From: an uncultured Kofleriaceae bacterium
GTDB lineage: Bacteria; Myxococcota_A; Polyangia; Haliangiales; Haliangiaceae
NCBI GenBank assembly: GCA_964617845.1
Contig: CAZUAR010000026.1
Location: 42,821-106,820, forward strand
DNA length: 64,000 nucleotides
Direction of reading: 5' to 3'
Shown here: positions 4,245 to 30,690 of the stretch, one piece after another
Layout of the letters: the number at the start of each line of letters is the position of its first letter
Position numbering within the stretch: position 1 is the first letter of the stretch
The notes under the pieces: model-generated
The model's database searches: none
What the model saw: the letters and a program-made list of their open reading frames with translations, nothing else
Told to the model about the DNA's origin: nothing
Translations under genes and position numbers: made by a program

Positions 4245-4245
4245 G

Positions 4246-6518: not shown

Positions 6519-6669
6519 ATGCCCGAGGGGCCTCTCCTCTCGGTTACCACCGCCGGATCAAGGACACATAAAGAGCCGTATCAAGATTCCATCAAGACCG
6601 AGGAACCCGAGCCACGAGCTTGATCTCGCCTTAACGCGAACTTTACGCGAGCGCCGGTACAACGGCGAC

Positions 6670-6897
6670 ATGAGCGACGACGACGATATCGAGCGCGAGG
6701 AGCGAGGAATCTACCTCGTCATCCTCGGTGCCATGATCCCGATCGTCCTCGGGACCTTGTACGCGCACGACGTGTTCGATGCCGGGAGCACGATCAGCCT
6801 CGGGCTGCTCGTACTCGCGGTGTTCGGGCTGTTCAGCCGAGCGATCTTGCGTCGCCCGACGGTTCGTGTACCCGCGGCACGCGCCAAGCTGCGTTGA
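6670..6897 (+). CDS. small hypothetical 2-TM membrane protein upstream of the kdp genes
   Basis: 75 aa with an acidic N-terminus followed by two hydrophobic helices. Weak Shine-Dalgarno sequence. Confidence 0.3.
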   Translation: MSDDDDIEREERGIYLVILGAMIPIVLGTLYAHDVFDAGSTISLGLLVLAVFGLFSRAILRRPTVRVPAARAKLR

Positions 6898-6927
6898 CCG
6901 GTGCGTATACGCGGGCTCGACGCGGTC

Positions 6928-6944
6928 TTGACGCGAGCTTGACG
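6928..6944 (+). promoter_or_regulatory. direct repeat TTGACG-N5-TTGACG (11-bp periodicity) about 40 bp upstream of the first kdp-locus small ORF; candidate OmpR/KdpE-type binding site or -35 element
   Basis: Read directly: cTTGACGcgagcTTGACGaacg. Spacing is consistent with winged-helix response-regulator direct repeats. No functional proof. Confidence 0.25.
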
Positions 6945-6982
6945 AACGACCGTGTATCCAGGTTCTCGCGAAACGAGGACCA

Positions 6983-7066
6983 ATGCTGGACCTGATCTAC
7001 ATCGTCGTCATCGTGGCGCTCCTCGTAGCGTCGCTCTGGATGATCCGTGTCTTCGACCGGATGTGA
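6983..7066 (+). CDS. 27-aa hydrophobic peptide (MLDLIYIVVIVALLVASLWMIRVFDRM), possible kdp-associated small subunit
   Basis: Good SD (GAGGAcca ATG) and a single TM helix. Lies 10 bp upstream of kdpF in the same orientation. Below the ORF-track length cutoff; found by eye. Confidence 0.4.
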   Translation: MLDLIYIVVIVALLVASLWMIRVFDRM

Positions 7067-7075
7067 GGTGATTCC

Positions 7076-7168
7076 ATGACCGCCCTCTACTGGCTCGCCG
7101 GCGTGTTCTCCGTCGGCCTCTTCCTCTACTTGCTGGTGGCGTTGTTCCGCCCGGAGAAGCTCCAATGA
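7076..7168 (+). CDS. kdpF: K+-transporting ATPase small subunit KdpF (30 aa)
   Basis: Translation [30 protein letters not shown] matches the KdpF pattern (hydrophobic helix then ...YLxxALxxPExF-like tail). SD is GAGGTG. Stop overlaps the kdpA start (ATGA). Confidence 0.7.
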
Positions 7169-11030: not shown

Positions 11031-11037
11031 GGACGTC

Positions 11038-11619
11038 ATGAAGGAACTACTCCAGACCATTCGCCCTGCCCTGATCTCGCTGCTCGTGTTCACCGTGCTG
11101 TGCGGGGTCGTCTACCCCGCGGCGATGATCGGTGTCGCGGCCGTCGTCCCTCACCCCGAGCCACCCGAGCTCGTCGGCCAGCCGTTCGACGATCCGGCGT
11201 ACTTCTGGGGCCGTCCGTCGGCGATTTCGTACAACGCGATGGCGTCGGGCGGCCTCAACGCCGGTGCCGGCGGCTTCATCGACGACAAGGGGACCATCGG
11301 ACCGAACAAGGCCCTCGTCGACGTCGCGCAGAGCCGCATCCAGGCGCTGCGCGACGCGGACCCCGGCAACACCGCGAAGGTCCCGGTCGACCTGGTCACG
11401 GCGTCGAGCTCCGGCCTCGATCCGGACATCTCGCCGGCCGCGGCGTACTACCAGGCGTCGCGCATCGCGCGCCTGCGCCAAGTCCCCGTCGAGAAGATCC
11501 GCGCGATCATCGATCGCGTGACCGAGGAGCGCACCCTCGCGGTCCTGGGTGAGCGCCGCGTGAACGTGGTACGCCTCAACAAGGCGCTCGATCAGGAGGT
11601 CGCGCGCCCGAAGAGCTAG
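11038..11619 (+). CDS. kdpC: potassium-transporting ATPase subunit C
   Basis: 193 aa with an N-terminal TM anchor and the conserved KdpC C-terminal region (SGLDPDISPAAAYYQ...). Confidence 0.9.
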   Translation: MKELLQTIRPALISLLVFTVLCGVVYPAAMIGVAAVVPHPEPPELVGQPFDDPAYFWGRPSAISYNAMASGGLNAGAGGFIDDKGTIGPNKALVDVAQSRIQALRDADPGNTAKVPVDLVTASSSGLDPDISPAAAYYQASRIARLRQVPVEKIRAIIDRVTEERTLAVLGERRVNVVRLNKALDQEVARPKS

Positions 11620-11626
11620 CGGCCTG

Positions 11627-14290: not shown

Positions 14291-14979
14291 GCTCGACCAT
14301 CCTTGTCGTCGACGACGATCTGCACGTGCGCCGCTTCCTGCGCACCGTCGTGACCGGCCACGGCCATACGGTCGTCGAAGCGGGCACCGTCGCCGAAGCG
14401 ATCGACGCGATCGATCGCGTCCACCCGAGCGTCGTGCTCCTGGACCTCGGCCTGCCCGACGGTGACGGACTGCAGGTGCTGCGCGCCCTCCCCGCGGAGA
14501 CGCGCCCCCCGATCATCGTGCTCTCCGCGCGCGGCCAGGAAGGCGACAAGGTCGCGGCGCTCGACGCCGGCGCGGAGGACTACCTGACCAAGCCGTTCGG
14601 CGCGGGCGAGCTGCTCGCGCGCATTCGCGTGGTGCTGCGGCGCACCGGTGGGGCGGCCGCACCCGACGTGATCGAAGTCGGTCCGATCAAGATCGATCAG
14701 CCACGTCACTCCGTCACCGTCGGCGGTACCGAGGTCCACCTCACCCCGATCGAGTTCAAGCTGCTCGTCGAGCTCGCTCGCCAACCCGGCCGCGTGCTGA
14801 CGCACCGCCACCTCTTGATCGCTGTGTGGGGACCCAATGCGATCGAGCAGACGCACTACCTCCGCGTGCACATGGCCGCGCTGCGCCGCAAGGTCGAGAG
14901 CGATCCGGCACGTCCCCAGTGGCTCCTGACAGAGGCGGGCGTGGGCTATCGCTTGCGCGAGCCCGTGCCGGCAGCTTGA
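14287..14979 (+). CDS. kdpE: OmpR-family response regulator KdpE
   Basis: Receiver domain (ILVVDDD...LLDLGLPDGDG) plus winged-helix output (trans_reg_C). Overlaps the kdpD stop. Confidence 0.85.
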   Translation: MSSTILVVDDDLHVRRFLRTVVTGHGHTVVEAGTVAEAIDAIDRVHPSVVLLDLGLPDGDGLQVLRALPAETRPPIIVLSARGQEGDKVAALDAGAEDYLTKPFGAGELLARIRVVLRRTGGAAAPDVIEVGPIKIDQPRHSVTVGGTEVHLTPIEFKLLVELARQPGRVLTHRHLLIAVWGPNAIEQTHYLRVHMAALRRKVESDPARPQWLLTEAGVGYRLREPVPAA

Positions 14980-15084
14980 TCGCCATCGCGGCGGGCATCG
15001 CGCCGACATCGCTGGATCTCGTGCGTCTCGGTCCGATCGGTGTGAGCCGGCGGAGAGCAGCGAGCGTCGCGTTACGATGCGATC

Positions 15085-16038
15085 ATGCTGCTGCTCCGAA
15101 TTGTCGCGCCGCCCGAGACAGCCGCGACGGTCGTCGCGTACCTCGAAGGTCTCGACGTCTTCGATCTGATCCACTTCCCCGGGGTGAGCCGGCGGCCCAA
15201 AGGTGATCTCATCCAGTGTGTCGTGGGCTCGGATCTCGCGAGCGTGATCGTGTCGGCGCTTCGCGAGCTCGGAGTCTCGGACACCGGCTCGATCACGATC
15301 GACCGGCTCGACGCGACGGTCGCGAAGGATTCGTGCAGCGATCCCGATCCGGGCGTCGTGGTGTGGGAGGAGGTCGAGGCGAAGACCGCGACGATGGCCG
15401 AGCTCTCGACCGCGTTCCTCCTCTACATGATGGCGGCCACCGTGATCGCGGCGGTCGGAATCCTGACCGACTCGGTCGTGCTGATCATCGGCGCGATGGT
15501 CGTCGGTCCCGAGTTCGGACCACTTTGCGGGTTGAGCGTCGGACTGATCCAGCGCCGGCGCGAGCTCGTCCGCCAATCGATGCTCAGCCTCGGGGTCGGT
15601 TTCGCGCTCGCCTTCGCGGCTGCGTTCGTCGCGACCTGGGCGTTTCGGTCCGCGGGCGTCGCGCCGGAGATCCTCGATGCGAGCCACCACCCGGCGACGC
15701 TGTTCATCTCGCGACCGGACGTGTACACGGTGGTGATCGCGGCGCTGTGCGGCGTGGTTGGCATGCTGTCCCTCACGACGGCAAGCGCGGGCACGCTGAT
15801 CGGCGTTCTGATCTCGGTCACCACGATCCCCGCAGCTGGCAACGTCGGGGTCGCCGCAGCCTACGGCAACACCGACGAGATGGTGGGCGCGCTGATCCAG
15901 CTCGGCGTCAACCTCACGGTGATCCAGATCGCCGGCTTGATCACGCTGCGGATTCAGCGCGCCGCGTTTGCATCGCGTGTCACAACCTTCGTCGAGCGTC
16001 TCCGCCGGCTCCGGCTGCGAAGGATCTTGCGCCGGTAG
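15085..16038 (+). CDS. DUF389-family membrane protein
   Basis: Soluble N-terminal domain followed by a hydrophobic domain containing the DUF389-typical MVVGPEFGPLCG block. Confidence 0.55.
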   Translation: MLLLRIVAPPETAATVVAYLEGLDVFDLIHFPGVSRRPKGDLIQCVVGSDLASVIVSALRELGVSDTGSITIDRLDATVAKDSCSDPDPGVVVWEEVEAKTATMAELSTAFLLYMMAATVIAAVGILTDSVVLIIGAMVVGPEFGPLCGLSVGLIQRRRELVRQSMLSLGVGFALAFAAAFVATWAFRSAGVAPEILDASHHPATLFISRPDVYTVVIAALCGVVGMLSLTTASAGTLIGVLISVTTIPAAGNVGVAAAYGNTDEMVGALIQLGVNLTVIQIAGLITLRIQRAAFASRVTTFVERLRRLRLRRILRR

Positions 16039-16052
16039 CCGTTCGCTTCGAC

Positions 16053-17840
16053 TCAGCGTCCCGGCAACGTGAAACGCAGGATCGCGCCCTCGCCCGTCGA
16101 TCCTTCCGCCCAGATGCGGCCGCCGTGGCGCGTGACGATCTTGTGCGCGGTCGCGAGGCCGATGCCGCTGCCTTCGAACTCGCTCGCCGCGTGGAGGCGC
16201 TGGAACGGCGCGAACAGCTTGTCGACGAACGACTGGTCGAAGCCTGCGCCGTTGTCGCGCACGTAGTAGACGCGCTCGCCTGCCTTCTCCTCCATCCCGA
16301 CCTCGATCCGCGCCGGCGTACGGTGACGCGTGAACTTCCACGCGTTGCCGATCAGGTTCTCGTACAGCGCCCGGAGCAGCATCGGATCGCCCATCGCCGT
16401 CATCCCGTGCGCGATCGTCACGTCGACGGTTCGCTCCGGCTGTCCGGACACGAACGACGATATGACGTCGTTCGCGATCGTCCCGAGATCGATCCGCTCG
16501 CGGGCGATGTCCTTCTTCGTCAGCCGCGCGAGCGCGAGCAGCGCATCGATGATCGACTGCATCTGCTCGCCGCCGCGCTGGATCCGCGCCAGGTAGTCGC
16601 GGCCGATATCGTCGATGCGATCGCCGTAGTCCTCGAGGATCGCGACCGCGAAGTGGCCCATGGCTCGCAGCGGCGCGCGCAGGTCATGCGCGACCGAGTA
16701 GCTGAACGCCTCCAGCTCGCGGTTCGCGAGCTCGAGCTCGCGCGTGCGCGCCTCGACGCGTGCCTCGAGCTCGGCGAGCAGGGTCGCGTTCTCGATCGCG
16801 AGCGCGGCGCGGTCCGCGAGGTCCTGCGCGAGACGCTGGTCGTCGAGCGTGAACGGCGACTCCGTGTTCACGCGGCGCAGGTTGAGCACGCCGAGCACCC
16901 GACCACGCGCGATCAGCGGCACCGCGAGGATGCTGATCACGCCCTCGATCTCCTTCACCAGCTCCCGATGTGTCTCGTGCATCTGCGCGAGCATCTCCGA
17001 CGCCGCGAGATCCGCGACGAGCACCGGCCGTCGCGTCGCGATCACGCGCCCGCCGATGCCTTCGTTCGGCCGCAGGGGCGCTCGCTTCCACAGGTCCTCG
17101 AGCTTCGCGGCGAGAGTCGGATCGAGATCGTGGATCGCCTGGACCTCGAGCTGGCCGTCGGCGCCGACGAGTTGCACCGTCGTCGCTGCCACGAGCTCCT
17201 CGGCGAGCGTGCGCGCGATCGCCTGCACGAGCACCTGCACGTCTGGGATCAGCGACGCGAACCATCGCGTGCTCGCCGCGAGGATCCGCAACCTCGCTGC
17301 ACTCGCTTGCTCGGCGCGGCGGCTCTCCTCGATCTGCGCCTGAAAGCGAATGCGCCCGGCGGCCACCGCGATCTGCTCGCCCATCCCAGCAAGCATCGCG
17401 AGCTCGTCCGGCGACGGTGGTCGTACGCCTTCGTCGCCGAACGTCCCGGTACCGAATGCACCGAGCGCGCGATCGAGCAAGCGCAGCGGGATGTTGATGA
17501 TCGTCCGGCTACCGAGCGCTTCGACGATCTCCTTGTTCGTGCGCGGATCGACGCGGGCATCTTCGACGACGACGGGCCCGGTCCCGCGATAGAGCTCCTC
17601 GAGCATCGCGTCCCCTTCGACCCGCAGCACCGTCGCGGTCGCCCAGGCGCCGTCCCTCTTGGCCCCGACCACGTCGATCAACCTCCACTCGGCACTCTCG
17701 CTGTCCGTCGCGAGGAACATCCAGGCATGCGGGTATCCAATCGACGCACACACGCGCTGCGTGATCTCGAGGAGCTCCGCGAACGTCGTCGCACGCTGCA
17801 GATCGCGCGCGTACGCCAGGACTCGACTCGCCGCGCTCAC
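16053..17840 (-). CDS. multi-GAF sensor histidine kinase
   Basis: C-terminal HisKA (FSYSVAHDLRAPLRAM) and HATPase_c (NLIGNAWKF...RDNGAGF...GSGIGLA) preceded by about 350 aa of GAF-like sensor sequence. Start overlaps the corA stop. Confidence 0.8.
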   Translation of the reverse strand: MSAASRVLAYARDLQRATTFAELLEITQRVCASIGYPHAWMFLATDSESAEWRLIDVVGAKRDGAWATATVLRVEGDAMLEELYRGTGPVVVEDARVDPRTNKEIVEALGSRTIINIPLRLLDRALGAFGTGTFGDEGVRPPSPDELAMLAGMGEQIAVAAGRIRFQAQIEESRRAEQASAARLRILAASTRWFASLIPDVQVLVQAIARTLAEELVAATTVQLVGADGQLEVQAIHDLDPTLAAKLEDLWKRAPLRPNEGIGGRVIATRRPVLVADLAASEMLAQMHETHRELVKEIEGVISILAVPLIARGRVLGVLNLRRVNTESPFTLDDQRLAQDLADRAALAIENATLLAELEARVEARTRELELANRELEAFSYSVAHDLRAPLRAMGHFAVAILEDYGDRIDDIGRDYLARIQRGGEQMQSIIDALLALARLTKKDIARERIDLGTIANDVISSFVSGQPERTVDVTIAHGMTAMGDPMLLRALYENLIGNAWKFTRHRTPARIEVGMEEKAGERVYYVRDNGAGFDQSFVDKLFAPFQRLHAASEFEGSGIGLATAHKIVTRHGGRIWAEGSTGEGAILRFTLPGR

Positions 17841-18856
17841 AACAGCTTGTTACGGCGCATCGCGTAGATCAGTCCGACGATGATCGCGACCGCCGCTCCC
17901 CAGAACAACGCGTAGCCGTAGTGCCACTTCAGCTCGGGGATGATGTCGAAGTTCATGCCGTACACGCCGCAGAGGAACGTCAGCGGCAAGAAGATGATGC
18001 TGACGACCGTCAGCTTGCCCATCGTCTTGTTCGACTTGTGTGCGACGAGGGACATGTAGTTGTTGAGCGAGCCGTTGAGGATGTCGCGATCGACGAGGAC
18101 GTCCTGGAGCACGCGCTCGATCGTGCCGACCATGTTGTTCAGGTACGGCTGCGTCGCCTCGCTGACGAACGCCGACTTGCGCGTCGACAGGTCGGTCAGC
18201 ACGGAGCGCGCGGGCAGCACGATCTTGCGCAGGTGCAAGAGGTCCGCGCCGAGCTCGGACGCTTCGGAGAACACGGACTCGTCGACCTCACCGACGAGGC
18301 GGCGCTGGACCTCGTCGACGCGCTCCTCGAACTTCTTGTGGACCGAGAGGTAGTTGTCGACGAGGTGATCCCACAGCTCGTAGAGCAAAAAGCTCGGGCT
18401 CTGCGCGAACTTCACGAAGTCCTGGATGTACTGCTTGCGCACCGCCTCGAGAAACACGGGCTGTCCACGGTGGAGCGTGAGCATGAACTTCTCGCCCATC
18501 ATCACGTCGACGCGCTCGAGGTCGAACTTGCTACCGACGAGGCGGCACCCCGAGAGGACGAGGTGGAGGAAGTTCTCGTAGCGTCCGATCTGCGTCGCCG
18601 GTTCGCGGCTCAGCGCGTCTTCGACGATCTCGGGCTCGTACATTCCTTCGAGCTTCGCGAGGATCTTGCGGGCTTCGTCCTTGTTCGCGATGTCCACGTC
18701 GATCCAGACGAACCTGCGCTCGCCCTCCATCGACTTCTTGATCTCGTCGAGGCTGACCTTGCGATGTTGTTTGGTCGCGAAGTCCAGCTCGACGGCGTTC
18801 CACGTCGGATCGGCCGCGGCTGCAAATTCACCCGAAGCACCAGCCAGCATCGTCAA
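17837..18856 (-). CDS. corA: CorA-family Mg2+/Co2+ transporter
   Basis: C-terminal two TM helices with the YGMNF (GMN) signature; 339 aa. Confidence 0.85.
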   Translation of the reverse strand: MTMLAGASGEFAAAADPTWNAVELDFATKQHRKVSLDEIKKSMEGERRFVWIDVDIANKDEARKILAKLEGMYEPEIVEDALSREPATQIGRYENFLHLVLSGCRLVGSKFDLERVDVMMGEKFMLTLHRGQPVFLEAVRKQYIQDFVKFAQSPSFLLYELWDHLVDNYLSVHKKFEERVDEVQRRLVGEVDESVFSEASELGADLLHLRKIVLPARSVLTDLSTRKSAFVSEATQPYLNNMVGTIERVLQDVLVDRDILNGSLNNYMSLVAHKSNKTMGKLTVVSIIFLPLTFLCGVYGMNFDIIPELKWHYGYALFWGAAVAIIVGLIYAMRRNKLL

Positions 18857-18922
18857 CGATGGTACCCGAATCGGTCGAACCGGTCGTAGCGGCTCACCAA
18901 TATTGCTTCGGGGCGGGATGCC

Positions 18923-21058
<2,136 letters not shown>

Positions 21059-21125: not shown

Positions 21126-24100
21126 CTAGAACTGCGTGCCGTACCCCGGCTTGCCGCGCTCCAGCAGGTTCTTCGCCTGATAGACCTGGCTCATCCAGAT
21201 GTCGTGCCACTTGCCCTTCGCGACCTGCTCGAGCAGCGCGTCGCCCTCGGCGGTGCGGCCGAGCGCGATCAGCGCCTGCGCCTTGCGGACGCGTGGCGTC
21301 GGGTTGGTCTGATCGATCACGATCGCTTGCTGCCAGTAGTCGAGCGCCTCGGCGACCTTGCCCTGCGCCTCGAACGACTGGGCGACGGTCATGTAGCCCG
21401 CGCCGCTCATCGGATCGCGCTCGATCACGCCGGAGAGCTGGCGCCACGCTTCGGCCTTGTTGCCGACCGCGAGCTGCAGCTCGCCGAGGATGCGATCGAT
21501 GTCGGTGTTGCCCGGATCGATCGCGCGCCACTTGGCACCCCAGATCATCGCGCGCTCGGTCGCGGCGACGCGCGCCGCGCCCGTGGACTCCATGGCGAGC
21601 TGCTTCGCGGTCGCGATGATCTGCGCCAGCTCGCCGCGCACCGTCGAGATCGAGACCGCCTCGTCGGCGGCGGCGGTCTGCGCGGCCTCGAGGTGCGCGA
21701 GCGCCTTGGCGGTGTGCCGCTGTTGCTGCGCGAACTGCGCCGCCAGCTTGTGGAGCGCGGCCGTGTGGTGGGTCTTGACCAGCTCGTCGACGAGGGCCTC
21801 GGCGAGCTGCGCCATGCCCCGCGCGAGCGCGAAGTTGGCGACGTCGACCTTGCGTTCGATGTCGTCGCCGGCGAGCTCGACCGCGCGCGCGAACACGGCG
21901 TTCGCGTCGGCGGGCTGCGACTGGACCTGCGCGGCGAGCGCCATCACGTGCTCGAAGCTTCCACCCGCGAGGACGCGGTCGCGCCAGCGCCCCCACAAGA
22001 GCTGCCAGCCCGCGTTCCCGCGGCGCGACTGCTGGATCGCGTAGGCGCCGTTGCCGAGGAACGGGGGAGCGGCGGTGAGATCGAGGTCGTCGATCATGAG
22101 CGCGATCATCTCGGCCGCCTGCTCGTATGCGCCGCGGTTGTACAGCGCGGTCGCGGCGTTCGAGCGCGCGACGTTCTTGAGGCGCCCGACGGCGACCGTG
22201 TTCCACGCCCGCGCGATGTCCGCGGGCTTGAGGTCGTAGCGGTTGCTCGTCATCGCCGCGCCGAGGATGCGGAACTGGAGCGCGCGCGTACCGAACGCGA
22301 CGATCTTGTCGACGGCGGCGGCGCTCTTCGACGCCGCGAACAGCGCGGTGACCTCGCGGTGCTGCCACAGCGCGCCGAGCACGCCGGTAGTGACCTGTGG
22401 CTTCATGCGCTCCGGGCGGGGGCTCTTGCCGTACGCGCGACCCGCGATCAGGTAGCGCGCGACCGGCGCGCCGGCGTGCGGTGCGAGCGCCTCCGCGAAC
22501 TGCTTGTCCGTCGATGACGTCGCGATGCCGCCGCTCGCGAGCACGATGTCTCCGATCTCGACGCCGCCGTTCTGGCGCAGCGCCTCGTAGATCGCGAACT
22601 GCGTCGCGCGGTCGCCCGTCGCAGCCACGCTCGCCAGGTGCTGGCGCTGCGCGCGCCGCCACGGCTCGCTGCCCGCGGTCTCCTTCTTCACGCGCTCCGC
22701 CCAGTAGGCGGGCATCCGCGTCGGCAGCTCGACGACGGTGCGCTGCGCCGCCGCCGCGCCATGCGCCCATGCGACCGAGTCGTCGATCGCCTGGCCGGTG
22801 AAGCCGACCGCCACGGCGTTACCCTGCATCTGCGCCGCGATCGGACCGATCGGGCCCCACGTCACGGACAGCAGCGTGTTCCCCTCGCCGTCGCGGATCG
22901 CGACGAGGTGATGGTTCGCGTCGAGCTCGAGCTCGAGCACGACGCTCGCCTTGCCGCTCGCGTACGACGACAGCGTGATGGTGCGCGGGCCCTTCGTCTT
23001 CACCTCGAACCAGCGCGCGTAGTGCGACGGGTCGGCGATCCAGATCGGGAGGTACGCGAACGCGAGCGCGATGTCGTCGCTCGTGATCGGCCGCGTGACG
23101 TCGAGGCCGAGCTCCGCGTAGCGCCGCGTGAACGTCGCGCCGTCGAACGACGCGGTCTCGAGGAGGTCCGCGTCCGTCGTGCGGCGCCACCCGAAGCGGC
23201 CCGACGAATCGACGCCGATCTCGAGCTCGCCCCAGCGATACACGCCGCTCGGCAGCGCGCCGCGTGCCTTCTCGAGCAGCGCCTTGGCGGCGGGCTCGAT
23301 CGGATGCACGAGCGCCGCCGCGGACTCCTCGAATTGCGAGCGCCAGAAGTCGCTCGCGTCGGGGAACAGCGCCGGGACGAACGCGCTGAGGTCGTCGAAC
23401 GCCATGTCGGACGGGTACGTGAACCGCTGCGGCATCATCGGTCCCGCCAGCGCGCTCTCGCCGCCGATGTTTTTGTCGAACGCCCAGCGCGTCGCGCCGG
23501 TCTTGAGCTCCTCCGTCGTGAGGCGCACGCGGCGCTCGCCGCTCTCGAGCGGAGTGTCGATGTTCGCGCGCACGGATTGCTCCGCGCGATCGACCTTGCG
23601 CGCCTTCGCGATCGCGCCGCGGAAGTTCTGCTCCTCGTCACCGTCGTCGAGAGGAATCGTGACGGCCTCCGCGATCGGCTGCTGCACCTGGAGGTCGAGC
23701 TGGCGCCGCGTCCGCGCGCCCGCAACGCGTCCGCCGCCACCCGCTCCGCGTCCGAAGCCCGCGCCCGAGCCGTGGCCGATGGTGCCGAAGCGGCCCGCGC
23801 CGAGCGTGATGCTGTTGTCGAGCCCGCCCCAGCCGCCGACGTCGCCGTTCGCGAATCCACCCGTGAAGTCCATGTTCGCGTACGAGTAGAAGATCTGCAG
23901 CGGCATGCGGAACAGCTCCGCGTCGTCGGTGACGTCGACCGGCTTGGTCTGCGCCATCGTGACGATCGGGATCGTCGCGGGCATCGCGTACGGCGCCCAC
24001 GTGTCGCCCTGCCCCTTGCGCACGCCGTACTTCGCGTACATCGCGTCGTTCTCGAGGACGATCAGCGACGTGTGCCGCGAGAGCAGGAAGTACTGCTTGC

Positions 24101-26438
24101 CGAGCTCGACGACCTCCTTGCGGATCGCCTCGTCGCGCTCGTTGCGCACTTGCTCCTCGGTCTTGCAGACCGCGGCGCCGGACGTGGCCGTCTCCGCGCA
24201 CGGCGGAGCGACGACCGGTTCGTGCTTCGCGAGCAAGCGCGCCGCGACGTGGCGGTGTGCCCACAGTCGCGGGAGGTAGCCCGCGTGCGCCGTGCCCGCA
24301 TCGAGCGCGATGCGCTGCTTCCACGCGGCACCGTTCGCGATGCCCGTGAGCTCGAGCGCCGCGGGCGTGCCGTCACCGGCGAGCTTCGCGACGAGCTCGA
24401 TCTCCTCGCCGTCGGTGATCTGCGGCGAGCGCAGGTACGACGTCGAAGGCACGAGCTGGCCGTTCGCGTCGACGAGCCGCGCTTCGATGCCGGTCGCGCG
24501 CGAGGTGTGAAGCGCGGCGACGAGGTCGAACGCACGCCAGCCGAGGTCGTCGGCGAGGTCCACCGTCGTCGTGTAGCCGCCGGTCGCGGCCGCGAGCGCT
24601 TCGAGCGTCTGCGTGTCCGCGCCATCGCCGACGCCGACACCGACGAAGTGCGCCTTGCCGGCGAGCTGCGTGCGCAGCGCGTCGAGCTTGCGCGTACCGC
24701 TCGTGACCACGCCGTCGCCGAGGTAGACGATCATCGCGTCGTCGGGGTTCGTCCCCGCGAGCAGCTTGGTCGCCGCGTCGAGCGCGACCGCGAAGTCCGT
24801 CGCACCGACGTCGCCCTCGCCCGCGAGGGCCTCGCGCAGCTTTTGGCGATCGATATCGAGCACGCGCGTCGGCGCGAGCTTCTGTCGCGCGGTGACATCG
24901 AACGCGATCACCGCGAGCTTGTCCTCCTCGTCGAGCTCGCGAACGAACGCGTCGACGAGGTCCTGCTGCGCGCGCCGCTCCATCGAGCCGCGCGAGGCGC
25001 TGACGTCGTCGAGGATGACCCACGTGCGGGGACGATACGCGCGCGCCTCCTTCGACAGCTCCGCCGGCGAGCGGACCATCAGGTAGCGAGCGCCGTCGAC
25101 GGTCTCGTGGACCACGGACGGCTTCTGCCGCGCGTCGCGCACCCGGAGCACGAGCGAATCGCCGATCGTGTCACCGTTCTTCCGGTACGTGACCTTCGCG
25201 TCCTCGCCCTTGCGCTCGACGGAGATCGGGTGACTCGTCGACGTGATCTCGCAGTTCGCGCAGCCCTTGATCGAGACATCGAACGCGACCTCGCCGACCG
25301 GCGCATCGATCTCCGGCAGCGGGACCGTGAGCGACCAGTCGCCGTACAGCTTCGCGATGCTCTGCGTGTACGCGAGCATCAAGCGCTTCTCCTGCCGCGC
25401 GGGCAACGGATAGACGCGCAGCGAGACCTTGCCCGTGCCTTCCCACTCGAGCAGCGCCGGATCGACGCGGCGATACACGAGCTCCTCGTAGATGCGGCGC
25501 GCGCGCATGCGCTCGACCACGGCCGACTCGGTCAGCTTGCCGTCGACGTACATCGCGAGGCGCTGGAGCGCGGCGTCCGACGGGATGCCGAACTTGTAGA
25601 CGCCCTCGAGCACGCGGTCCTGTGCGTTGAAGAACGTCTGATCGAGCGCGACGCGCGCGACCTGGTTGTCGATGACGATGTCGACGCCGAGCTTCTTCAG
25701 CGGCAGCGGATACTCCGCGCCGAACACGCCGTTGCGGACGCCCGGATCGCGGGCGAACAGCGTGCCGTTGCGCAGCGGGCGCACGTCGTGCTCCGCGCGC
25801 CGGCGCGCCTGCGCCGCCCACGACACGAGGTGCGAGAGCCGCGGCGCGGGTCCGCGCGTCGGCGGCCGCCCCGGCTCCGCCACGGCTTGCTCGCCCGCGT
25901 GGAGGACGACATCGCCGTCCTTCGTCGCGAGCTTCACCTGACCGCGAACCACCGCGGCCGTCGTGCGCTCGTCGCTGGCGTCGACGAGGAACCGCGTGCC
26001 GAGCACCTGGATCTGGCCGTGCTTCGTCTCGACGACGAAGGTGCCGTTACCGGGCGCGATGTCGAGCAGCGCCGCGCCGTCGACACGAACGCGTCGATCG
26101 GCGAGCACGGTCACCTTCGAGTCGCCCTCGGTGATCCACGAGGATCCATCGGCGAGCTTCGTGACGTTGTCGCTCGTCGTCGCGTCGCCGCCGCCGGCAT
26201 CGTCGCCGACAAACCGCGTGACGATGATCGCGGCCGCCGCGGCAGCCGCGAGGCCCAGGCCGACCGCGCGCAAGCCGCGCATCGGGGACTTCGCCGCGGC
26301 CTCCACGCCGTGCTTCGCGATCAGCTGCGCGCGCATGCGGGCACGCGCGTCGTCGGTGAGCTTCGGCGCTTCACCGCCGGACTCGAGGAGCGTCGAGACG
26401 TTCTGCTCGAGAACATCGTGGGACTTCGATTCGTTCAT
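21126..26438 (-). CDS. giant FecR-type anti-sigma factor fused to VIT + von Willebrand A + TPR domains (about 1770 aa)
   Basis: Cytoplasmic N-terminus (MNESKSHDVLEQ...) is followed by a TM helix (GLGLAAAAAAAIIV) and a FecR-like domain. A VIT-like block follows (YPLPLKKLGVDIVIDNQVARVALDQTFFNAQDRVLEGVYKFGIPSDAALQRLAMYVDGKL), then a vWA domain with MIDAS DVSASRGSM, a long helical region and C-terminal TPRs. The ATG overlaps the sigma-factor stop (ATGA). Start choice within the longer ORF 21126..26828 is inferred. Confidence 0.75.
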   Translation of the reverse strand: MNESKSHDVLEQNVSTLLESGGEAPKLTDDARARMRAQLIAKHGVEAAAKSPMRGLRAVGLGLAAAAAAAIIVTRFVGDDAGGGDATTSDNVTKLADGSSWITEGDSKVTVLADRRVRVDGAALLDIAPGNGTFVVETKHGQIQVLGTRFLVDASDERTTAAVVRGQVKLATKDGDVVLHAGEQAVAEPGRPPTRGPAPRLSHLVSWAAQARRRAEHDVRPLRNGTLFARDPGVRNGVFGAEYPLPLKKLGVDIVIDNQVARVALDQTFFNAQDRVLEGVYKFGIPSDAALQRLAMYVDGKLTESAVVERMRARRIYEELVYRRVDPALLEWEGTGKVSLRVYPLPARQEKRLMLAYTQSIAKLYGDWSLTVPLPEIDAPVGEVAFDVSIKGCANCEITSTSHPISVERKGEDAKVTYRKNGDTIGDSLVLRVRDARQKPSVVHETVDGARYLMVRSPAELSKEARAYRPRTWVILDDVSASRGSMERRAQQDLVDAFVRELDEEDKLAVIAFDVTARQKLAPTRVLDIDRQKLREALAGEGDVGATDFAVALDAATKLLAGTNPDDAMIVYLGDGVVTSGTRKLDALRTQLAGKAHFVGVGVGDGADTQTLEALAAATGGYTTTVDLADDLGWRAFDLVAALHTSRATGIEARLVDANGQLVPSTSYLRSPQITDGEEIELVAKLAGDGTPAALELTGIANGAAWKQRIALDAGTAHAGYLPRLWAHRHVAARLLAKHEPVVAPPCAETATSGAAVCKTEEQVRNERDEAIRKEVVELGKQYFLLSRHTSLIVLENDAMYAKYGVRKGQGDTWAPYAMPATIPIVTMAQTKPVDVTDDAELFRMPLQIFYSYANMDFTGGFANGDVGGWGGLDNSITLGAGRFGTIGHGSGAGFGRGAGGGGRVAGARTRRQLDLQVQQPIAEAVTIPLDDGDEEQNFRGAIAKARKVDRAEQSVRANIDTPLESGERRVRLTTEELKTGATRWAFDKNIGGESALAGPMMPQRFTYPSDMAFDDLSAFVPALFPDASDFWRSQFEESAAALVHPIEPAAKALLEKARGALPSGVYRWGELEIGVDSSGRFGWRRTTDADLLETASFDGATFTRRYAELGLDVTRPITSDDIALAFAYLPIWIADPSHYARWFEVKTKGPRTITLSSYASGKASVVLELELDANHHLVAIRDGEGNTLLSVTWGPIGPIAAQMQGNAVAVGFTGQAIDDSVAWAHGAAAAQRTVVELPTRMPAYWAERVKKETAGSEPWRRAQRQHLASVAATGDRATQFAIYEALRQNGGVEIGDIVLASGGIATSSTDKQFAEALAPHAGAPVARYLIAGRAYGKSPRPERMKPQVTTGVLGALWQHREVTALFAASKSAAAVDKIVAFGTRALQFRILGAAMTSNRYDLKPADIARAWNTVAVGRLKNVARSNAATALYNRGAYEQAAEMIALMIDDLDLTAAPPFLGNGAYAIQQSRRGNAGWQLLWGRWRDRVLAGGSFEHVMALAAQVQSQPADANAVFARAVELAGDDIERKVDVANFALARGMAQLAEALVDELVKTHHTAALHKLAAQFAQQQRHTAKALAHLEAAQTAAADEAVSISTVRGELAQIIATAKQLAMESTGAARVAATERAMIWGAKWRAIDPGNTDIDRILGELQLAVGNKAEAWRQLSGVIERDPMSGAGYMTVAQSFEAQGKVAEALDYWQQAIVIDQTNPTPRVRKAQALIALGRTAEGDALLEQVAKGKWHDIWMSQVYQAKNLLERGKPGYGTQF

Positions 26439-27067
26439 TGCGAAACCTCCGCAAGGTTGGCGGACATGGTCGTCGCCAAGGTGGAAAACGTGTCGCGGAA
26501 CGCTCGTCGCGCGCGGGCGAGGAGCGACTTGGTGGCGTCGACGGAGATGCCGAGCTCGGACGCGAGCGTCTCGAGGGTCTCTCCATCGACGTACTTGCGC
26601 GTGAGCGCCGTCTTGTACTGCTCGGGCAGGTGCGCGATGGCCATGTGGACGAGGTCGCGCGTCTCGGCGCGCTCGAGCACCTCGCCGGGCAGCGGACGCT
26701 CGGCCATCGCGGCGAACGTCTGCGCGAGCGTCGCGTCGATGCGCTCCCACGTCGATTGCAGCTCGTCGCTGCGCTTGTGCGCGCGCAGGTGATCGCGAAT
26801 GACGTTGCGCGAGAGCACGGTCAGCCACGTGCCGACCGATCCGCGATTCGCGTCGTAGTCCGCCTGGCGCGAGAGCGCGATCGTGAACGTCTCCTGGACG
26901 ATGTCCTCGGCCAGGGTGTGGTCGCGACCGACTCGATAGAACACGAACGCGTACAGGCCATCGACGTGGGCGTCGTAGAACCTGCCGATCGCGTCCTTGT
27001 CACCGGCCTTCGCGGCGCGCAGATCGGCGCCGGGGCCTGTTCGAAAGAGGCGGGCGAGAAAGCTCAT
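26435..27067 (-). CDS. ECF (sigma-70 family group 4) RNA polymerase sigma factor
   Basis: Region 2 (FYDAHVDGLYAFVFYRVGRDHTLAEDIVQETF) and region 4 HTH (YKTALTRKYVDGETLETLASELGISVDATKSLLARAR). Start inferred at MSFLARLF (ATG at 27067). Translationally coupled to the downstream anti-sigma gene. Confidence 0.85.
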   Translation of the reverse strand: MSFLARLFRTGPGADLRAAKAGDKDAIGRFYDAHVDGLYAFVFYRVGRDHTLAEDIVQETFTIALSRQADYDANRGSVGTWLTVLSRNVIRDHLRAHKRSDELQSTWERIDATLAQTFAAMAERPLPGEVLERAETRDLVHMAIAHLPEQYKTALTRKYVDGETLETLASELGISVDATKSLLARARRAFRDTFSTLATTMSANLAEVSQ

Positions 27068-27075
27068 GGCGATAG

Positions 27076-28455
27076 GTGTCAGCGCGCCTCCCCGAGGTGT
27101 CGCGCGATGTTGCGAGCACACCGCGAATCGATGGTGCCGAGCAACGTTTTCAGGGGGATACTGGTCGTATTCACGTGCGCCAGGGCTCTCCGATCCCGCT
27201 GACGATCGCCCTCTCGGCCATCGTTCACGTCGCCCTGTTCGGCGCCGCGCACCTCCTGCCCGATCCACCGCACCTCGAGCACGATCCACCGGTCACGATC
27301 GAGCTCGTCCCGCCGCTCCCGGTCGCGCCGAGCACCGAGGAGGCCCCACCGATCGACGTCGTGTTCGTCGATCCACCCGTCGATCCCCCCGTCGATCCGG
27401 CCGTCGATCCGCGCATCGCTTTGCCACCGAACGTCGATCGTGGACCGAGCGCCGAGCCCCCGGCGGCGATCGACGCGACGCGAGGCGATCCGGGCCGGAT
27501 CGATCAGCGCGGCGCATCGACGTCGGAGGCCACCACGGTCGCGATCACCACCCCGGGCCCATCGTCGGATGCGCCGCCGTCGCGCAACCCGTACCTCGAC
27601 ATGCGTCGCGCGCCGAGCCCGCGCGTCGCGGTGCGCGGATGGGACGACCTCGAGCACGTCCCGCGAGGCACCGCGCCCGAGCAGGACATCTCGACCGGTC
27701 AGCTCGCGCCCGACGGTGGTGGCACGCACAAGTCCGATCAGGGTGCGTTCACCGCGAAGGTTGCCAAGGACGGCAGCATCACGCTGAAGGACAAGAAGAA
27801 CTTCCACATTCGCCTGACGCTGCCGTCGGCCAAGGACATCGGCGACATGTTCCAGGCCTGGTACTACGACCCGAACAAGCCGGTCGGCACGCTCGGTCCG
27901 CCGAACATGCCGAAGCGGCAGGCGAACCTGACCCGCGAGGACATCTCGGGCGCCGAGCGTCTCTCCGGCGACGACTCGCCCGTCTACGCCCACGAGAAGG
28001 ATCCGAACCCCGCGTCGGGCGGTGGCATCCCGATCGCAGCCGGCGGCTTCGACATCACGGACGCGTTCATGCGGAGCAACGGCGATGATCCCTATGCGAG
28101 CAAGAAGCTCGCGTTCCTCGACTCGACGCGCGACGAGCGCGTGCGGATCGGCCAGAAGTACAAGCGCGAGCAGCTCGCGCAGGTCGCGCAGATCGTGAAG
28201 AAGAACCTCGCGCGCGTATGGGCGGCGACCGAGGATCCGCAGCTGCGCAAGCAAGCGCTGTTCGAGATGTGGGACGAGTGCGTCGAGACCGGCAGCGCGG
28301 AGGTCGTCGAGGCGGCGGCCACGGCCCGCAAGATGATCATCGGCTTCATTCGCGCGAACTTCCCCGCGGATGGACCGCATCCGTACACGGCGGCGGAGAT
28401 CGCGGCATGCAATCGCGCGAAGCAATCCAAGGCCGCGTTCTCCCCCTATGAATAG
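27076..28455 (+). CDS. proline-rich membrane-anchored hypothetical protein (true start probably near GTG 27175)
   Basis: One TM helix (LTIALSAIVHVALFGAAHLL), a Pro-rich segment with PPVDPPVDPAVDP repeats, then a conserved-looking C-terminal globular part. Divergent from the ECF sigma gene. The annotated ORF start lies only 9 bp from the sigma start, so a downstream start is likelier. Confidence 0.5.
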   Translation: MSARLPEVSRDVASTPRIDGAEQRFQGDTGRIHVRQGSPIPLTIALSAIVHVALFGAAHLLPDPPHLEHDPPVTIELVPPLPVAPSTEEAPPIDVVFVDPPVDPPVDPAVDPRIALPPNVDRGPSAEPPAAIDATRGDPGRIDQRGASTSEATTVAITTPGPSSDAPPSRNPYLDMRRAPSPRVAVRGWDDLEHVPRGTAPEQDISTGQLAPDGGGTHKSDQGAFTAKVAKDGSITLKDKKNFHIRLTLPSAKDIGDMFQAWYYDPNKPVGTLGPPNMPKRQANLTREDISGAERLSGDDSPVYAHEKDPNPASGGGIPIAAGGFDITDAFMRSNGDDPYASKKLAFLDSTRDERVRIGQKYKREQLAQVAQIVKKNLARVWAATEDPQLRKQALFEMWDECVETGSAEVVEAAATARKMIIGFIRANFPADGPHPYTAAEIAACNRAKQSKAAFSPYE

Positions 28456-28571
28456 CCGAATCAGGCCCTCACGCGGCCCTCATTCGTTTGATGACAAAGT
28501 ATTTAGCGGTGAAGTCTAGCAGCTGAGCCCCGTCGAACGGGGCTAGCGTAGGGACCTACCAAGGAGACTTC

Positions 28572-30383
28572 ATGCGCAGATGGCTACCCATCCTCGCGGC
28601 GATCTCGCTCGCCGCGCCCGGCACGATCGCGGCGCAGCCGCGCGATCATCGCGATGACAAGAAGGAGCGGCGGATGCCGCCTCCCACCGACGATGGCCCG
28701 CGCGAAGCGCCCCCGCCCCCCAAGGCCGAGGCCTCCGGCACGAAGGCCGGCTACATCTGGGTCACGGGTCGGTGGACCTGGAAGGGCGGCAAGTACGAAT
28801 GGCTGCCCGGGCACTGGGAGCGAGCGCGCGCGAAGAAGACGTGGCGCGAAGGCAAGTGGGAGAAGCGCGGTGATCGCTGGGCGTATGTCGACGGTGCGTG
28901 GGTCGACGCGAATGCACCGACGCCGCCGACGACACCGACCACGCCGCCGCCGGTCGCCAACGATGGACCGCGGGAAGCACCACCGCCGCCGCGCGACGAG
29001 AAGCACGACGCGCGCGCCGGATACGTCTGGGTCGCGGGCGAGTGGGACTGGAAGAACGGCAAGTACGAGTGGATCGCCGGCCACTGGGAGCGCGAGCGCG
29101 CGAACAAGGAGTGGCGCCCGGGACGCTGGGAGCAGCGCGAGGGTCGCTGGCAGCGCACGCCCGGCAACTGGTTCGATCGCTCGGGTCCGCCGCCCGTCGC
29201 GCCGCCCGTCGCGCCGCCCGTCGCCAACGATGGACCGCGCGAAGCGCCGCCGGCGCCGCGCGACGAGAGGCACGAGCCCTCGCGCGCGGGCTACGTCTGG
29301 GTCGCCGGCGAGTGGGACTGGAAGAACGGCAAGTACGAGTGGGTCCCGGGCCACTGGGAGCGGGAGCGCGCGAACAAGCAGTGGCGCGCCTCGCGCTGGG
29401 AGCAGCGCGATGGTCGCTGGATGCGAACGCCCGGCGACTGGATCGATCGCGACGGTCGCGACGACGATCGACCGCGCGAAGCACCGCCGCCGATGCGCGA
29501 CGAGAAGCGCGAGCCGTCTCGCGCGGGCTACGTGTGGGTCGCCGGCGAGTGGGACTGGAAGAACGGCAAGTACGAGTGGATCGCCGGCCACTGGGAGCGC
29601 GAGCGCGCGAACAAGGAGTGGCGTCCCGGACGCTGGGAGCAGCGCGATGGCCGCTGGGTGCGCACGCCCGGTGACTGGTTCGATCGCGGTGCCATCGATC
29701 ATCGCCGGCGATCGTGGAAGTTCGAGCGCCCCGTCGTGTCGAACTACTGGCCGGCCAAGGGCAAGCCCGGCGCGAGGGTCGTGATCCGCGGCAAGAACTT
29801 CCCCAAGGACGCGGTCGTCGTCTGGGGCGGCAAGGAGATCCGCGGCGTGAAGGTCGACGACGACCAGCTGCGGTTCGTCGTGCCGAACGACGCGACGAGC
29901 GGCTTGATCTCGGTGCGCGTCGGTCGCGGTCGCGATCTCGCGGTCGGCAACTTCGAGGTCGCGGCGTCGTTCGATGCCGAGGCCGAGCGCCGGCGGATGG
30001 AGGAAGAAGCGCGCAAGAAGGCGGAGGCCGAGTGGGCCGAACGCCGGAAGCAGCTCGCGAAGGACCGCGCGGCGCGTGAAGCCGCCGTGCGCCAGCGCTG
30101 GGAGGAGCGCGCCGCAAACCGCCAGCAGCGCCGGGCCGAGCGCCTCGCGCAGATCCGTGCGAGGTACGCGGCGGCGTTCCTCGCCGACGAGGAGACGCAG
30201 GCCGAGATGAACCTGCACGCGCAGCGCATCGCCGAGCTCGAGCGCATGGCCGACGTCGCCGAGATCAAGGCGGATACCAAGCTGGGCGTGCGCATCGACG
30301 TGCTCCGCCAGCGCGAAGACCAACGTCACGAGGATCGCATGGCAGCGCTCGATGCCGCGTTCCGCGCAGGAGGTGCACGATGA
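28572..30383 (+). CDS. secreted repeat protein: 4-5 WxxGxW-type repeats (YVWVAGEWDWKNGKYEW...), an IPT/TIG-like domain and a C-terminal coiled coil
   Basis: Signal peptide MRRWLPILAAISLAAPGTIAAQP; tandem repeats visible at protein and DNA level; IPT-like block PVVSNYWPAKGKPGARVVIRGKNF...ISVRVG; C-terminal heptad-rich region. Confidence 0.8.
   Translation: MRRWLPILAAISLAAPGTIAAQPRDHRDDKKERRMPPPTDDGPREAPPPPKAEASGTKAGYIWVTGRWTWKGGKYEWLPGHWERARAKKTWREGKWEKRGDRWAYVDGAWVDANAPTPPTTPTTPPPVANDGPREAPPPPRDEKHDARAGYVWVAGEWDWKNGKYEWIAGHWERERANKEWRPGRWEQREGRWQRTPGNWFDRSGPPPVAPPVAPPVANDGPREAPPAPRDERHEPSRAGYVWVAGEWDWKNGKYEWVPGHWERERANKQWRASRWEQRDGRWMRTPGDWIDRDGRDDDRPREAPPPMRDEKREPSRAGYVWVAGEWDWKNGKYEWIAGHWERERANKEWRPGRWEQRDGRWVRTPGDWFDRGAIDHRRRSWKFERPVVSNYWPAKGKPGARVVIRGKNFPKDAVVVWGGKEIRGVKVDDDQLRFVVPNDATSGLISVRVGRGRDLAVGNFEVAASFDAEAERRRMEEEARKKAEAEWAERRKQLAKDRAAREAAVRQRWEERAANRQQRRAERLAQIRARYAAAFLADEETQAEMNLHAQRIAELERMADVAEIKADTKLGVRIDVLRQREDQRHEDRMAALDAAFRAGGAR
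28748..29687 (+). repeat. four tandem copies (period about 240-270 bp, about 85-90% identical) of a coding repeat (consensus TACGTCTGGGTCGCCGGCGAGTGGGACTGGAAGAACGGCAAGTACGAGTGG...)
   Basis: Copies start near 28751, 29025, 29292 and 29532. Read directly from the sequence. Confidence 0.8.
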
Positions 30384-30676
30384 AGGCGAAGGCACTCGTT
30401 CTCGCGCTCTTGTTCGCGGCCGCGTGCGGCAAGTCGACGGAGAAGGGCCCGCCGCTCGATCCGCCGGGCAGCGGAAGCGCCACCGCGGACACCGGCAGCG
30501 GCAGTGGCAGCGGCAGCGCCGCGGGCAGTGGTAGCGACGCCGGAAGCGGCAGCGCCGCCGCCGCCGTCGACGTTCCGACCTCGATGGACTACGAGGAGCT
30601 CGCGAAGGAAGAGATCACCGACAAGACGGTCGAGGCGCGTCTCAAGACGCTCGAGACCGAGCTCGCGCCGCAGTAA
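30380..30676 (+). CDS. small lipoprotein with Gly/Ser-rich linker
   Basis: MKAKALVLALLFAAACGKS lipobox and a GSGS-rich low-complexity segment. Start overlaps the upstream gene stop (ATGA). Confidence 0.55.
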   Translation: MKAKALVLALLFAAACGKSTEKGPPLDPPGSGSATADTGSGSGSGSAAGSGSDAGSGSAAAAVDVPTSMDYEELAKEEITDKTVEARLKTLETELAPQ

Positions 30677-30690
30677 CTCGCACCGATCGC

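Follow-up and report, generated by a model that had tools for sequence, protein, structure and literature searches.

Does a sigma factor that is encoded next to a giant VIT-vWA protein and close to a major vault protein (MVP) homologue belong to a vault-like system, or to a membrane signalling system of its own? Pairs of extracytoplasmic function (ECF) sigma factors and anti-sigma factors are among the main routes by which bacteria sense the outside, and very few of their sensor domains have known ligands. We analysed 64,000 nucleotides (nt) of a Kofleriaceae bacterium (contig CAZUAR010000026.1, positions 42,821 to 106,820; hereafter the window), in which an ECF sigma factor gene overlaps the gene of a protein of 1770 amino acids (aa) with FecR, VIT, vWA and TPR domains. 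The window has a G+C content of about 69%, and proteins encoded in it are identical to those with locus tags AB7T06_11480 and AB7T06_11495 of a Kofleriaceae bacterium (Myxococcota) metagenome-assembled genome. A preliminary description of this DNA had suggested a vault-like partnership recruited into sigma-factor signalling. With moderate confidence we propose instead that the pair is a chromosomal ECF sigma/transmembrane anti-sigma signalling module of Kofleriaceae, which acts independently of the neighbouring MVP gene.

A coupled sigma factor and giant membrane protein

The sigma protein, of the stress type, contains the Pfam domains Sigma70_r2 (aa 31-99, E 2.8e-13) and Sigma70_r4_2 (aa 138-189, E 1.9e-12) and scores 78.9 bits with the NCBIfam model sigma70-ECF (TIGR02937), for which the cut-off is 42.9. 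It has the layout of an ECF (group 4) sigma factor, with sigma2 and sigma4 domains only, a length of around 200 aa and neither region 3 nor region 1.1. Its nearest solved relatives are SigW, AlgU and RpoE. The best NCBIfam models are of the SigW/BldN type, and no FecI model is among the 25 matches listed. The protein ends in ...TFSTLATTMSANLAEVSQ. Its stop codon (TGA, 26435-26437) overlaps the start codon of the giant open reading frame (ORF; ATG, 26436-26438) as ATGA, and a 4-nt [A/G]TGA overlap in the correct frames was found in 62 of 64 species-level orthologous loci. The two genes are translationally coupled. The preliminary description had already pointed to this overlap, and its coordinates, ORF lengths and domain assignments all proved correct in ORF, Pfam and NCBIfam checks (Table 1).

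The pair is widespread. More than 120 full-length homologues of the giant protein are 1700-1800 aa long and 54-79% identical to it, and those with a named source are mostly from Kofleriaceae. In a synteny scan that used one genome per species, 64 loci, nearly all of Kofleriaceae/Haliangiales, had a sigma orthologue (65-92% identical) directly upstream of the giant ORF. A unit that recurs in 64 species-level genomes, 62 of them with the 4-nt overlap, cannot be due to chance. The most distant orthologues of the giant protein (38-42% identity) retain the order FecR-VIT-vWA, and one of them has TPR matches too. An exhaustive HMMER search with aa 1-860 of the giant protein as query gave 1059 cluster representatives (clustered at 50% identity) at E <= 1e-30. 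At least the best 150 of these, at E <= 1e-86, are mostly 1.6-2.35 thousand aa long and 32-83% identical to the query, and they generally align from the FecR domain to beyond the vWA domain. Pfam confirmed FecR and VIT in three of four representatives that were checked. Of three distant homologues that were inspected, two, both with a FecR match and 33-40% identity, directly follow an ECF sigma gene, which in one case overlaps by 4 nt; the third has neither a FecR match nor an upstream sigma gene. The combination of an ECF sigma factor and a giant FecR-VIT-vWA protein is a two-gene module that recurs broadly. Literature searches found no experimental study of any FecR-VIT-vWA anti-sigma factor. 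We tentatively suggest that the giant FecR-VIT-vWA-TPR proteins might form a large class of anti-sigma sensors, so far uncharacterised, that cleave themselves and work independently of TonB.

The domains named in the preliminary description (FecR, VIT, vWA with an intact DxSxS motif and C-terminal TPRs) were all recovered by Pfam with matches that exceed the curated cut-offs, the last as TPR_19 at aa 1691-1740 (2.8e-7). In the FecR domain, the motif LG147-T148-RF (Gly-Thr codons at 25995-26000) has G147, T148 and F150 invariant among 25 homologues and aligns with VLG[A/G]SF of a ‘putative anti-sigma factor’ in the Protein Data Bank (PDB; 4m0n/4m0h). The VIT domain is followed by a vWA domain with a complete metal ion-dependent adhesion site (MIDAS), in which D478-x-S480-x-S482, T547 and D575 are invariant in the same set, as in ITIH-like VIT-vWA modules. 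NCBIfam TIGR03788 aligns with aa 377-804, and ITIH4 was weakly matched in direct sequence comparison. The glycine-rich linker, which lies N-terminal to both the beta-rich domain and the TPR-like superhelix, is the least conserved stretch of the homologue alignment. The cytoplasmic N-terminal segment is among the most strongly conserved parts, with L10, N13, V14, L17, G21, G22, P25, R34, R36 and L39 invariant.

The single transmembrane helix is flanked by K/R on its N-terminal side and D on its C-terminal side. Since the positive-inside rule favours it, and anti-sigma function would also require it, the N-terminus is predicted to lie inside, with about 54 residues in the cytoplasm and about 1690 outside it. 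For aa 985-1770, AlphaFold2 (pLDDT 86) predicts a beta-rich domain and, after it, a TPR-like superhelix. The former has about 14 strands with block-mean pLDDT values of about 78-94 (model m172cff7f2800), and no fold was assigned to it because TPR matches dominate both fold searches. The ‘long helical region’ of the preliminary description thus holds for the superhelix of about 510 aa, and has to be amended for the beta-rich domain that precedes it.

Table 1. Features of the sigma/giant-protein locus and its surroundings, in window positions.
Feature	Position	Strand	Basis or remark
ECF sigma factor gene	26435..27067	-	210 aa; Pfam and NCBIfam matches above cut-off
Putative single-pass anti-sigma factor/sigma regulator	21126..26438	-	1770 aa; ATGA overlap with sigma gene; full-length homologues
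N-terminal cytoplasmic segment, aa 1-54, presumed to bind sigma	26277..26438	-	Conservation
Transmembrane helix, aa 55-79	26202..26276	-	Sole hydrophobic segment in Kyte-Doolittle scan
FecR domain, aa 94-169	25932..26159	-	Pfam FecR, E 2.6e-9
VIT domain, aa 247-357	25368..25700	-	Pfam VIT, E 9.8e-21, whole profile 1-111
vWA domain, aa 474-622	24573..25019	-	Pfam VWA_3, E 5e-11; MIDAS DxSxS at 24993-25007
Gly-rich low-complexity linker, ~aa 850-990	23469..23891	-	Read from sequence
Beta-rich domain, ~aa 1064-1240	22719..23249	-	AlphaFold2 model
TPR-like superhelix of ~510 aa, aa 1243-1760	21159..22712	-	AlphaFold2 model
Motif M1, CGACACCT-N10-CGnTGACAC	27075..27103	-	Ends ~8 nt before sigma ATG
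Motif M2, GGCAACG-N16-GGTCnTA	27140..27171	+	RpoE-like -35/-10 geometry; ends 3 nt before unk426 GTG
unk426, divergent membrane protein, 426 aa	27175-28455	+	N-terminal transmembrane helix, Pro-rich linker, C-terminal helical domain
Secreted WXXGXW-repeat/TIG protein	28572-30383	+	
98-aa lipoprotein ORF (MKAKALVLALLFAAAC...)	30380-30676	+	
MVP homologue, 776 aa	30836..33166	+	MVP_shoulder (9e-16), Vault_3 (7.6e-9); E 1.4e-14 to rat MVP
Ser/Thr protein kinase with C-terminal transmembrane segment	33257..34408	+	Pfam Pkinase, 5.3e-33
GST	34405-35142	+	
DEAD/DUF3516 helicase	18923-21058	-	Downstream of giant gene
CorA, GAF histidine kinase, Kdp genes			Downstream of giant gene

Conserved motifs between the sigma gene and unk426

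The 107 bp between the start codons of the sigma gene (ATG, 27067) and the divergent gene unk426 (GTG, 27175) hold two bipartite conserved motifs, M1 and M2, which face the sigma gene and unk426, respectively. M1 was present with invariant spacing in 62 of 63 non-redundant orthologous loci. With a score of 33.3 it is the sole match in the window (next-best site 12.9; shuffles <=16.8), and in 1.4 Mb of related loci it occurs a single time in each. M2 is likewise a single match (score 42.2; shuffles <=14.7), with the spacing CAAC-N18-GTC in 38 of 40 instances, and is missing from most loci in which tblastn found no adjacent unk426 (e.g. L026, L063 and L019). A partial antisense copy of M1 lies at the junction of the sigma and giant genes (26440-26468, plus strand, score 12.9), and its counterparts in L022, L027 and L074, at positions ~9984-9990 (minus strand), score 21-26. 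These copies probably result from conservation of the C-terminal peptide of the sigma factor (..NLxEVS); an antisense promoter is the less likely alternative.

The consensus promoter of ECF02 is GAACTTT-Xn-GTCT (Casas-Pastor et al.), and both the geometry and the letters of M2 match RpoE-type ECF promoters. As M2 is RpoE-like and SigW, AlgU and RpoE are the nearest solved relatives of the sigma factor, M2, and hence unk426, is the first candidate target of the sigma factor. M1 could be either its autoregulatory promoter or a promoter or operator of another factor. M2 was also considered as a sigma-54 promoter and rejected by inspection, as its spacing is GG-N10-AG and not GG-N10-GC. A sigma-70 promoter scan of positions 26900-33400 gave no promoter-like sites, and an intrinsic terminator scan of the same interval found terminator-like sites on the minus strand only, with none on the plus strand. 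Judged by the distances of their start codons from the -10-like elements (about 8 nt and 3 nt), the sigma gene and unk426 both appear to be leaderless or nearly so.

In relatives (L004-L076), most sigma genes are preceded by one or two upstream ORFs of 4-12 codons (e.g. MQAP* and MTFxVTP*). These begin 1-13 nt after M1 and end as ATGA or GTGA overlapping the next start codon. A simple coupled upstream ORF was found in 33 of 63 loci, and roughly ten more resemble cascades of two. Their peptides are unconserved and the arrangement alone is kept. In the clade of the window (the window, L007, L027 and L002), the sigma ATG directly follows M1.

The upstream side of the sigma gene is covered in 48 of the 64 orthologous loci, and unk426 adjoins the sigma gene in 42 of these 48 species. 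The unk426 family is restricted to one lineage and has 123 members, of which those with a named source belong to Kofleriaceae, Deltaproteobacteria, Myxococcales or Polyangiales; it has no Pfam match and no functional name from any source. AlphaFold2 predicts a C-terminal helical bundle (pLDDT >90, low confidence elsewhere), for which no fold match was found in the PDB. The Pro-rich linker of unk426 is TonB-like, and its C-terminal helical domain is highly conserved (GGFDxTDAxMR..DPYASKKLxFLDSTRDERV..LFELWDE).

A putative envelope-sensing anti-sigma factor and its alternatives

The giant protein has the generic features of a transmembrane anti-sigma factor, namely an adjacent coupled gene, a single transmembrane helix and a predicted cytoplasmic N-terminus, and it is probably the envelope-sensing anti-sigma factor of the coupled sigma factor. 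A possible mechanism can be drawn from FecR. E. coli FecR self-cleaves at G181/T182, and in the FecR/FoxR cascade self-cleavage at Gly-Thr is followed by dissociation of the C-terminal fragment, a second cleavage and cleavage by RseP (PMC12036975). In the window protein, the N-terminal 54 residues would hold the sigma factor at the membrane, and the FecR domain may cleave itself at the invariant G147/T148, as in FecR and FoxR. The large C-terminal fragment could then stay attached non-covalently as a protective cap. The ligand of the VIT-vWA module, at its MIDAS, and of the TPR superhelix would be a macromolecule of the periplasm or cell surface, a protein or else an acidic component of the envelope. 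Binding or loss of this ligand might release or destabilise the cap and expose the stub to proteolysis, after which a site-1 protease and then an RseP-type intramembrane cleavage would free the sigma factor. The freed sigma factor would most likely read M2 (GGCAAC-N17-GGTC) and transcribe the apparently leaderless unk426. Matches to TonB_dep_Rec or STN were absent among the neighbours and large ORFs of the window and in the annotated loci L002-L006. As neither the window nor the annotated relatives that were inspected encode a TonB-dependent transducer, none would take part and the signal must reach the sensor directly.

Several points weigh against this proposal. Firstly, the aa 1-54 segment had no Pfam match even at E <= 10, a profile of the N-terminal 82 aa found no anti-sigma factor in the PDB, and the segment has no recognisable anti-sigma domain of either class I (ZAS-, RskA- or RseA-type) or the FecR N-terminal type. 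Since the segment matches no known anti-sigma domain, we can only infer that it binds the sigma factor. It is also shorter than the cytoplasmic domain of FecR (54 versus ~85 aa), and the giant protein lacks a twin-arginine motif, while FecR uses Tat. Secondly, self-cleavage, proteases and ligand are all assigned by analogy. Thirdly, the -10 parts of M1 and M2 differ so that one sigma factor cannot read both, and at most one of them can be a promoter of the sigma factor of the window. The two halves of M1 are alike (GACACC/GACACC, 21-bp spacing), which would also suit a transcription factor that binds in tandem. Lastly, a Ser/Thr kinase orthologue lies upstream of the sigma gene in 42 of the 48 species and might regulate the sigma factor instead of the giant protein or together with it, and a syntenic core-genome block (Kdp, CorA, helicase, PanC) explains much of the neighbourhood conservation. 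Because of this block, adjacency of unk426 or of the kinase is weak evidence of a functional link.

The kinase leads to one alternative, in which the giant protein is a co-transcribed VIT-vWA/TPR scaffold or adhesin of the envelope or surface, held by a signal-anchor, and the sigma factor is controlled otherwise, for instance by phosphorylation. Apart from the missing anti-sigma domain and the kinase next door, this would fit the common secretion or surface location of VIT-vWA proteins (TIGR03788, XrtN/PEP-CTERM targets), and Casas-Pastor et al. were undecided between kinase and FecR-like protein as the regulator of ECF267. However, strong conservation of the cytoplasmic segment is not expected for a mere signal-anchor, and a FecR domain with a Gly-Thr motif right after a transmembrane helix is what marks out sigma regulators. 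The 4-nt coupling is kept almost everywhere, sigma factor and giant protein occur together in distant lineages without the kinase, and in two genomes the kinase stays with MVP and not with the sigma pair. The acidic ‘AEDIVQETF’ motif of region 2.2, which is replaced in phosphorylation-dependent ECF sigma factors, is retained as well. We therefore regard a scaffold or adhesin as unlikely.

It also seems unlikely that the giant protein is a FecR-type positive ‘sigma regulator’, whose released N-terminal fragment would be needed to activate the sigma factor beyond its sequestration. There is a precedent in E. coli, where the FecR fragment released by RseP joins FecI and activates transcription (PMC12036975), and the giant protein shares the FecR domain and Gly-Thr motif. 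However, its N-terminal segment shows no similarity to the cytoplasmic domain of FecR, and the sigma factor has SigW, AlgU and RpoE, rather than FecI, as its nearest solved relatives; sigma factors of that kind are kept inactive by their anti-sigma partners.

An envelope-sensing anti-sigma factor of this architecture would be new within a known type of system. The closest described group, compared here by its group description, is ECF267 in ECF classification 2.0, described from Sorangium and Chondromyces only, a member of the ECF02 (RpoE) clade with an anti-sigma factor at position +1 that is FecR-like and has one transmembrane helix and TPRs, with Ser/Thr kinases nearby and no FecA-like or TonB-dependent receptor (Casas-Pastor et al., 2021). 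The window pair shares the FecR+TPR protein at +1, the nearby kinase and the lack of a TonB-dependent receptor. In contrast to the window sigma factor, those of ECF267 have a G/D/E-rich C-terminus. No conserved promoter motif is described for ECF267, whereas M1 and M2 are strongly conserved, and its description includes neither VIT nor vWA, while the window protein has both and comes from a Kofleriaceae genome. We consider the pair ECF267-like, but not a member.

Other systems are further away. Like FecI-FecR-FecA of E. coli (and FoxR and PupR), the pair has coupled sigma and regulator genes, a FecR domain with a Gly-Thr motif after a single transmembrane helix and a probable proteolytic cascade that ends with RseP. 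It differs in the nearest solved relatives of its sigma factor, the shorter cytoplasmic segment, a periplasmic part of ~1690 versus ~230 aa with VIT, vWA and TPR, and the lack of a TonB-dependent transducer or STN nearby. Canonical FecIRA iron signalling was rejected on the grounds of the missing transducer and STN in window and relatives and the kinship of the sigma factor to SigW, AlgU and RpoE. Anti-sigma factors with vWA have already been catalogued in ECF226 and ECF289 (DUF3520 + von Willebrand A; Casas-Pastor et al.). These are also predicted to be single-pass proteins with vWA in the extracytoplasmic sensor, but their anti-sigma domains are of the ZAS/CAS type, they contain DUF3520 but neither FecR nor VIT nor a long TPR array, and they occur in Acidobacteria and Planctomycetes. 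RpoE-RseA-RseB and SigW-RsiW (ECF02, ECF30) resemble the pair in sigma sequence, in the likeness of M2 to the ECF02 consensus and in a single-pass anti-sigma factor. Unlike them, the window pair lacks a class I domain of the RseA/RsiW type, RseB and RseC, and its sensor is far larger.

The MVP homologue and the chromosomal neighbourhood

The MVP gene was placed about 4 kb from the sigma gene in the preliminary description, which agrees with the 3.77 kb measured from the sigma start, and it is a true homologue by its MVP_shoulder and Vault_3 domains and its match to rat MVP (Table 1). MVP homologues of Myxococcales have been reported before (bioRxiv 10.1101/872010). A partnership, in which MVP would bind the VIT-vWA module or the sigma factor would control the cluster at 28.5-35 kb, could be read from this proximity, from the shared strand of MVP and unk426 and from the recurrence of the order sigma-unk426-MVP-kinase in a sub-lineage (L002, L027, L048, L087, L089/L090 and L154).

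Synteny in both directions argues against it. MVP was adjacent in two of the 48 sigma-centred loci (L027 and L048), and in L007, where the anti-sigma factor is 75% identical, the WXXGXW gene is present and MVP is absent. Conversely, of the 51 loci from a metagenome scan with an MVP alignment that had 2 kb or more of upstream sequence, three had the sigma pair and four had unk426, all with an MVP at least 72% identical to that of the window. In two genomes with both genes on one contig, MVP is apart from the sigma pair (by ~45 kb in one of them) and the kinase and GST genes stay with MVP. Both MVP and the kinase are missing from the vicinity of two distant sigma + FecR-VIT modules. Co-occurrence of the two genes across Myxococcota had been proposed as a check of the link, and as far as gene neighbourhood goes the outcome speaks against it.

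The proteins themselves give no better support. VIT-vWA is predicted to be extracytoplasmic, whereas no signal peptide or N-terminal transmembrane helix was found in the MVP homologue. VPARP/PARP4, like ITIH heavy chains and the TIGR03788 sortase targets, does have a VIT domain followed by a MIDAS-containing vWA domain, which had been taken as a hint of a vault. In VPARP, however, it is the C-terminal INT domain (residues 1563-1724) that binds MVP, and not VIT or vWA (PMC5665922), and VIT-vWA is a common bacterial secreted module (TIGR03788). The giant protein, with Pfam matches to FecR, VIT, vWA and TPR only, has no PARP, BRCT or INT match and so nothing specific to VPARP; its VIT-vWA module is fused to a FecR-type anchor. 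Rfam and tRNA scans of the window found no vault-RNA, Y-RNA, other Rfam family or tRNA.

Shared regulation finds no support in the motifs either. Across the window and 0.8 Mb of MVP-centred loci, no copy of M1 or M2 precedes MVP, the kinase or the WXXGXW gene. MVP has a sigma-54-like -24/-12 element of its own (TTGGTCGCGAACGTGCA, 30804-30820), 17 nt from its ATG (30836), and two palindromes GTGCTCC-N5-GGAGCAC (30694-30712 and 30756-30776) that resemble sites of enhancer-binding proteins (EBPs). Among 77 distinct MVP upstream regions, 25 have a strict -24/-12 match at most 67 nt from the ATG (shuffles: mean 1.6, maximum 6) and 15 have the palindrome (shuffles: 0.3). Both signals are present with and without a nearby sigma pair (e.g. 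L086, L094, L158, L118 and L109), and this pattern suggests that Kofleriaceae-type bacterial MVP genes are under RpoN/EBP control. On synteny, predicted topology, the VPARP-MVP interface and the promoter analysis, we reject the vault partnership, which is scarcely credible.

Read-through is a separate matter. In the sub-lineage of the window, the order M2-unk426-(WXXGXW, lipoprotein)-MVP-kinase-GST on one strand with no terminator-like site makes transcription from M2 into MVP possible, which could tie the MVP homologue to envelope sensing without contact to VIT-vWA; we consider such a tie very unlikely. The best account of the adjacency of MVP is that it represents one state of a slot with variable content, which lies between unk426 and the kinase in the syntenic core-genome block. 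Relatives have MVP, the WXXGXW gene or other ORFs in this slot, or leave it empty. The WXXGXW gene and the lipoprotein ORF, which overlaps the stop of the former by 4 nt (30380-30383), fill the space between unk426 and MVP in the window, and the WXXGXW gene occupies the same slot in L007 and in L017, both of which lack MVP. The separated MVP genes (L084 and L085; genomes of L018 and L072) are divergent from a trio of AAA+ ATPase, small protein and TPR protein, near a TonB-dependent receptor-ExbB-ExbD-TonB cluster and with kinase-GST-Omp85-metallophosphoesterase-PanC genes downstream. Another Ser/Thr kinase is divergent from MVP in L086.

On the other side of the pair, 38 of 43 species have the helicase gene after the giant gene. 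As the helicase lies on the other strand in some of these (e.g. L002), the arrangement reflects conserved synteny and not an operon. The rest of the window (1-18900 and 38215-62342) is ordinary core chromosome, with genes for a glycerol-3-phosphate oxidase-like DAO protein, Kup, KdpA/KdpC/KdpD-KdpE, CorA, PanC, a 1018-aa CarboxypepD_reg/PDZ protein, a Cpn60-family chaperonin and a FadL-type outer-membrane protein. We noticed no signs of mobile elements in the ORFs of the window that were scanned.

Our analysis backs the sigma/anti-sigma reading as an inference and lends no support to the vault partnership. A bacterial vault or VPARP-like complex should not be deduced from the MVP homologue nearby, and the homologue's conserved sigma-54-type promoter is a better starting point for the function of bacterial MVP. 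The giant protein is a new architecture within a known type of system, relevant to specialists of ECF sigma factors and of myxobacteria. Its locus represents a large uncharacterised set of proteins that combine a FecR-type module with a metal-dependent adhesion module (VIT-vWA) and a TPR scaffold, and that have no TonB-dependent transducer. If the proposal is true, signalling by FecR-style cleavage would also serve to sense macromolecules of the periplasm or surface in the predatory and social Myxococcota.

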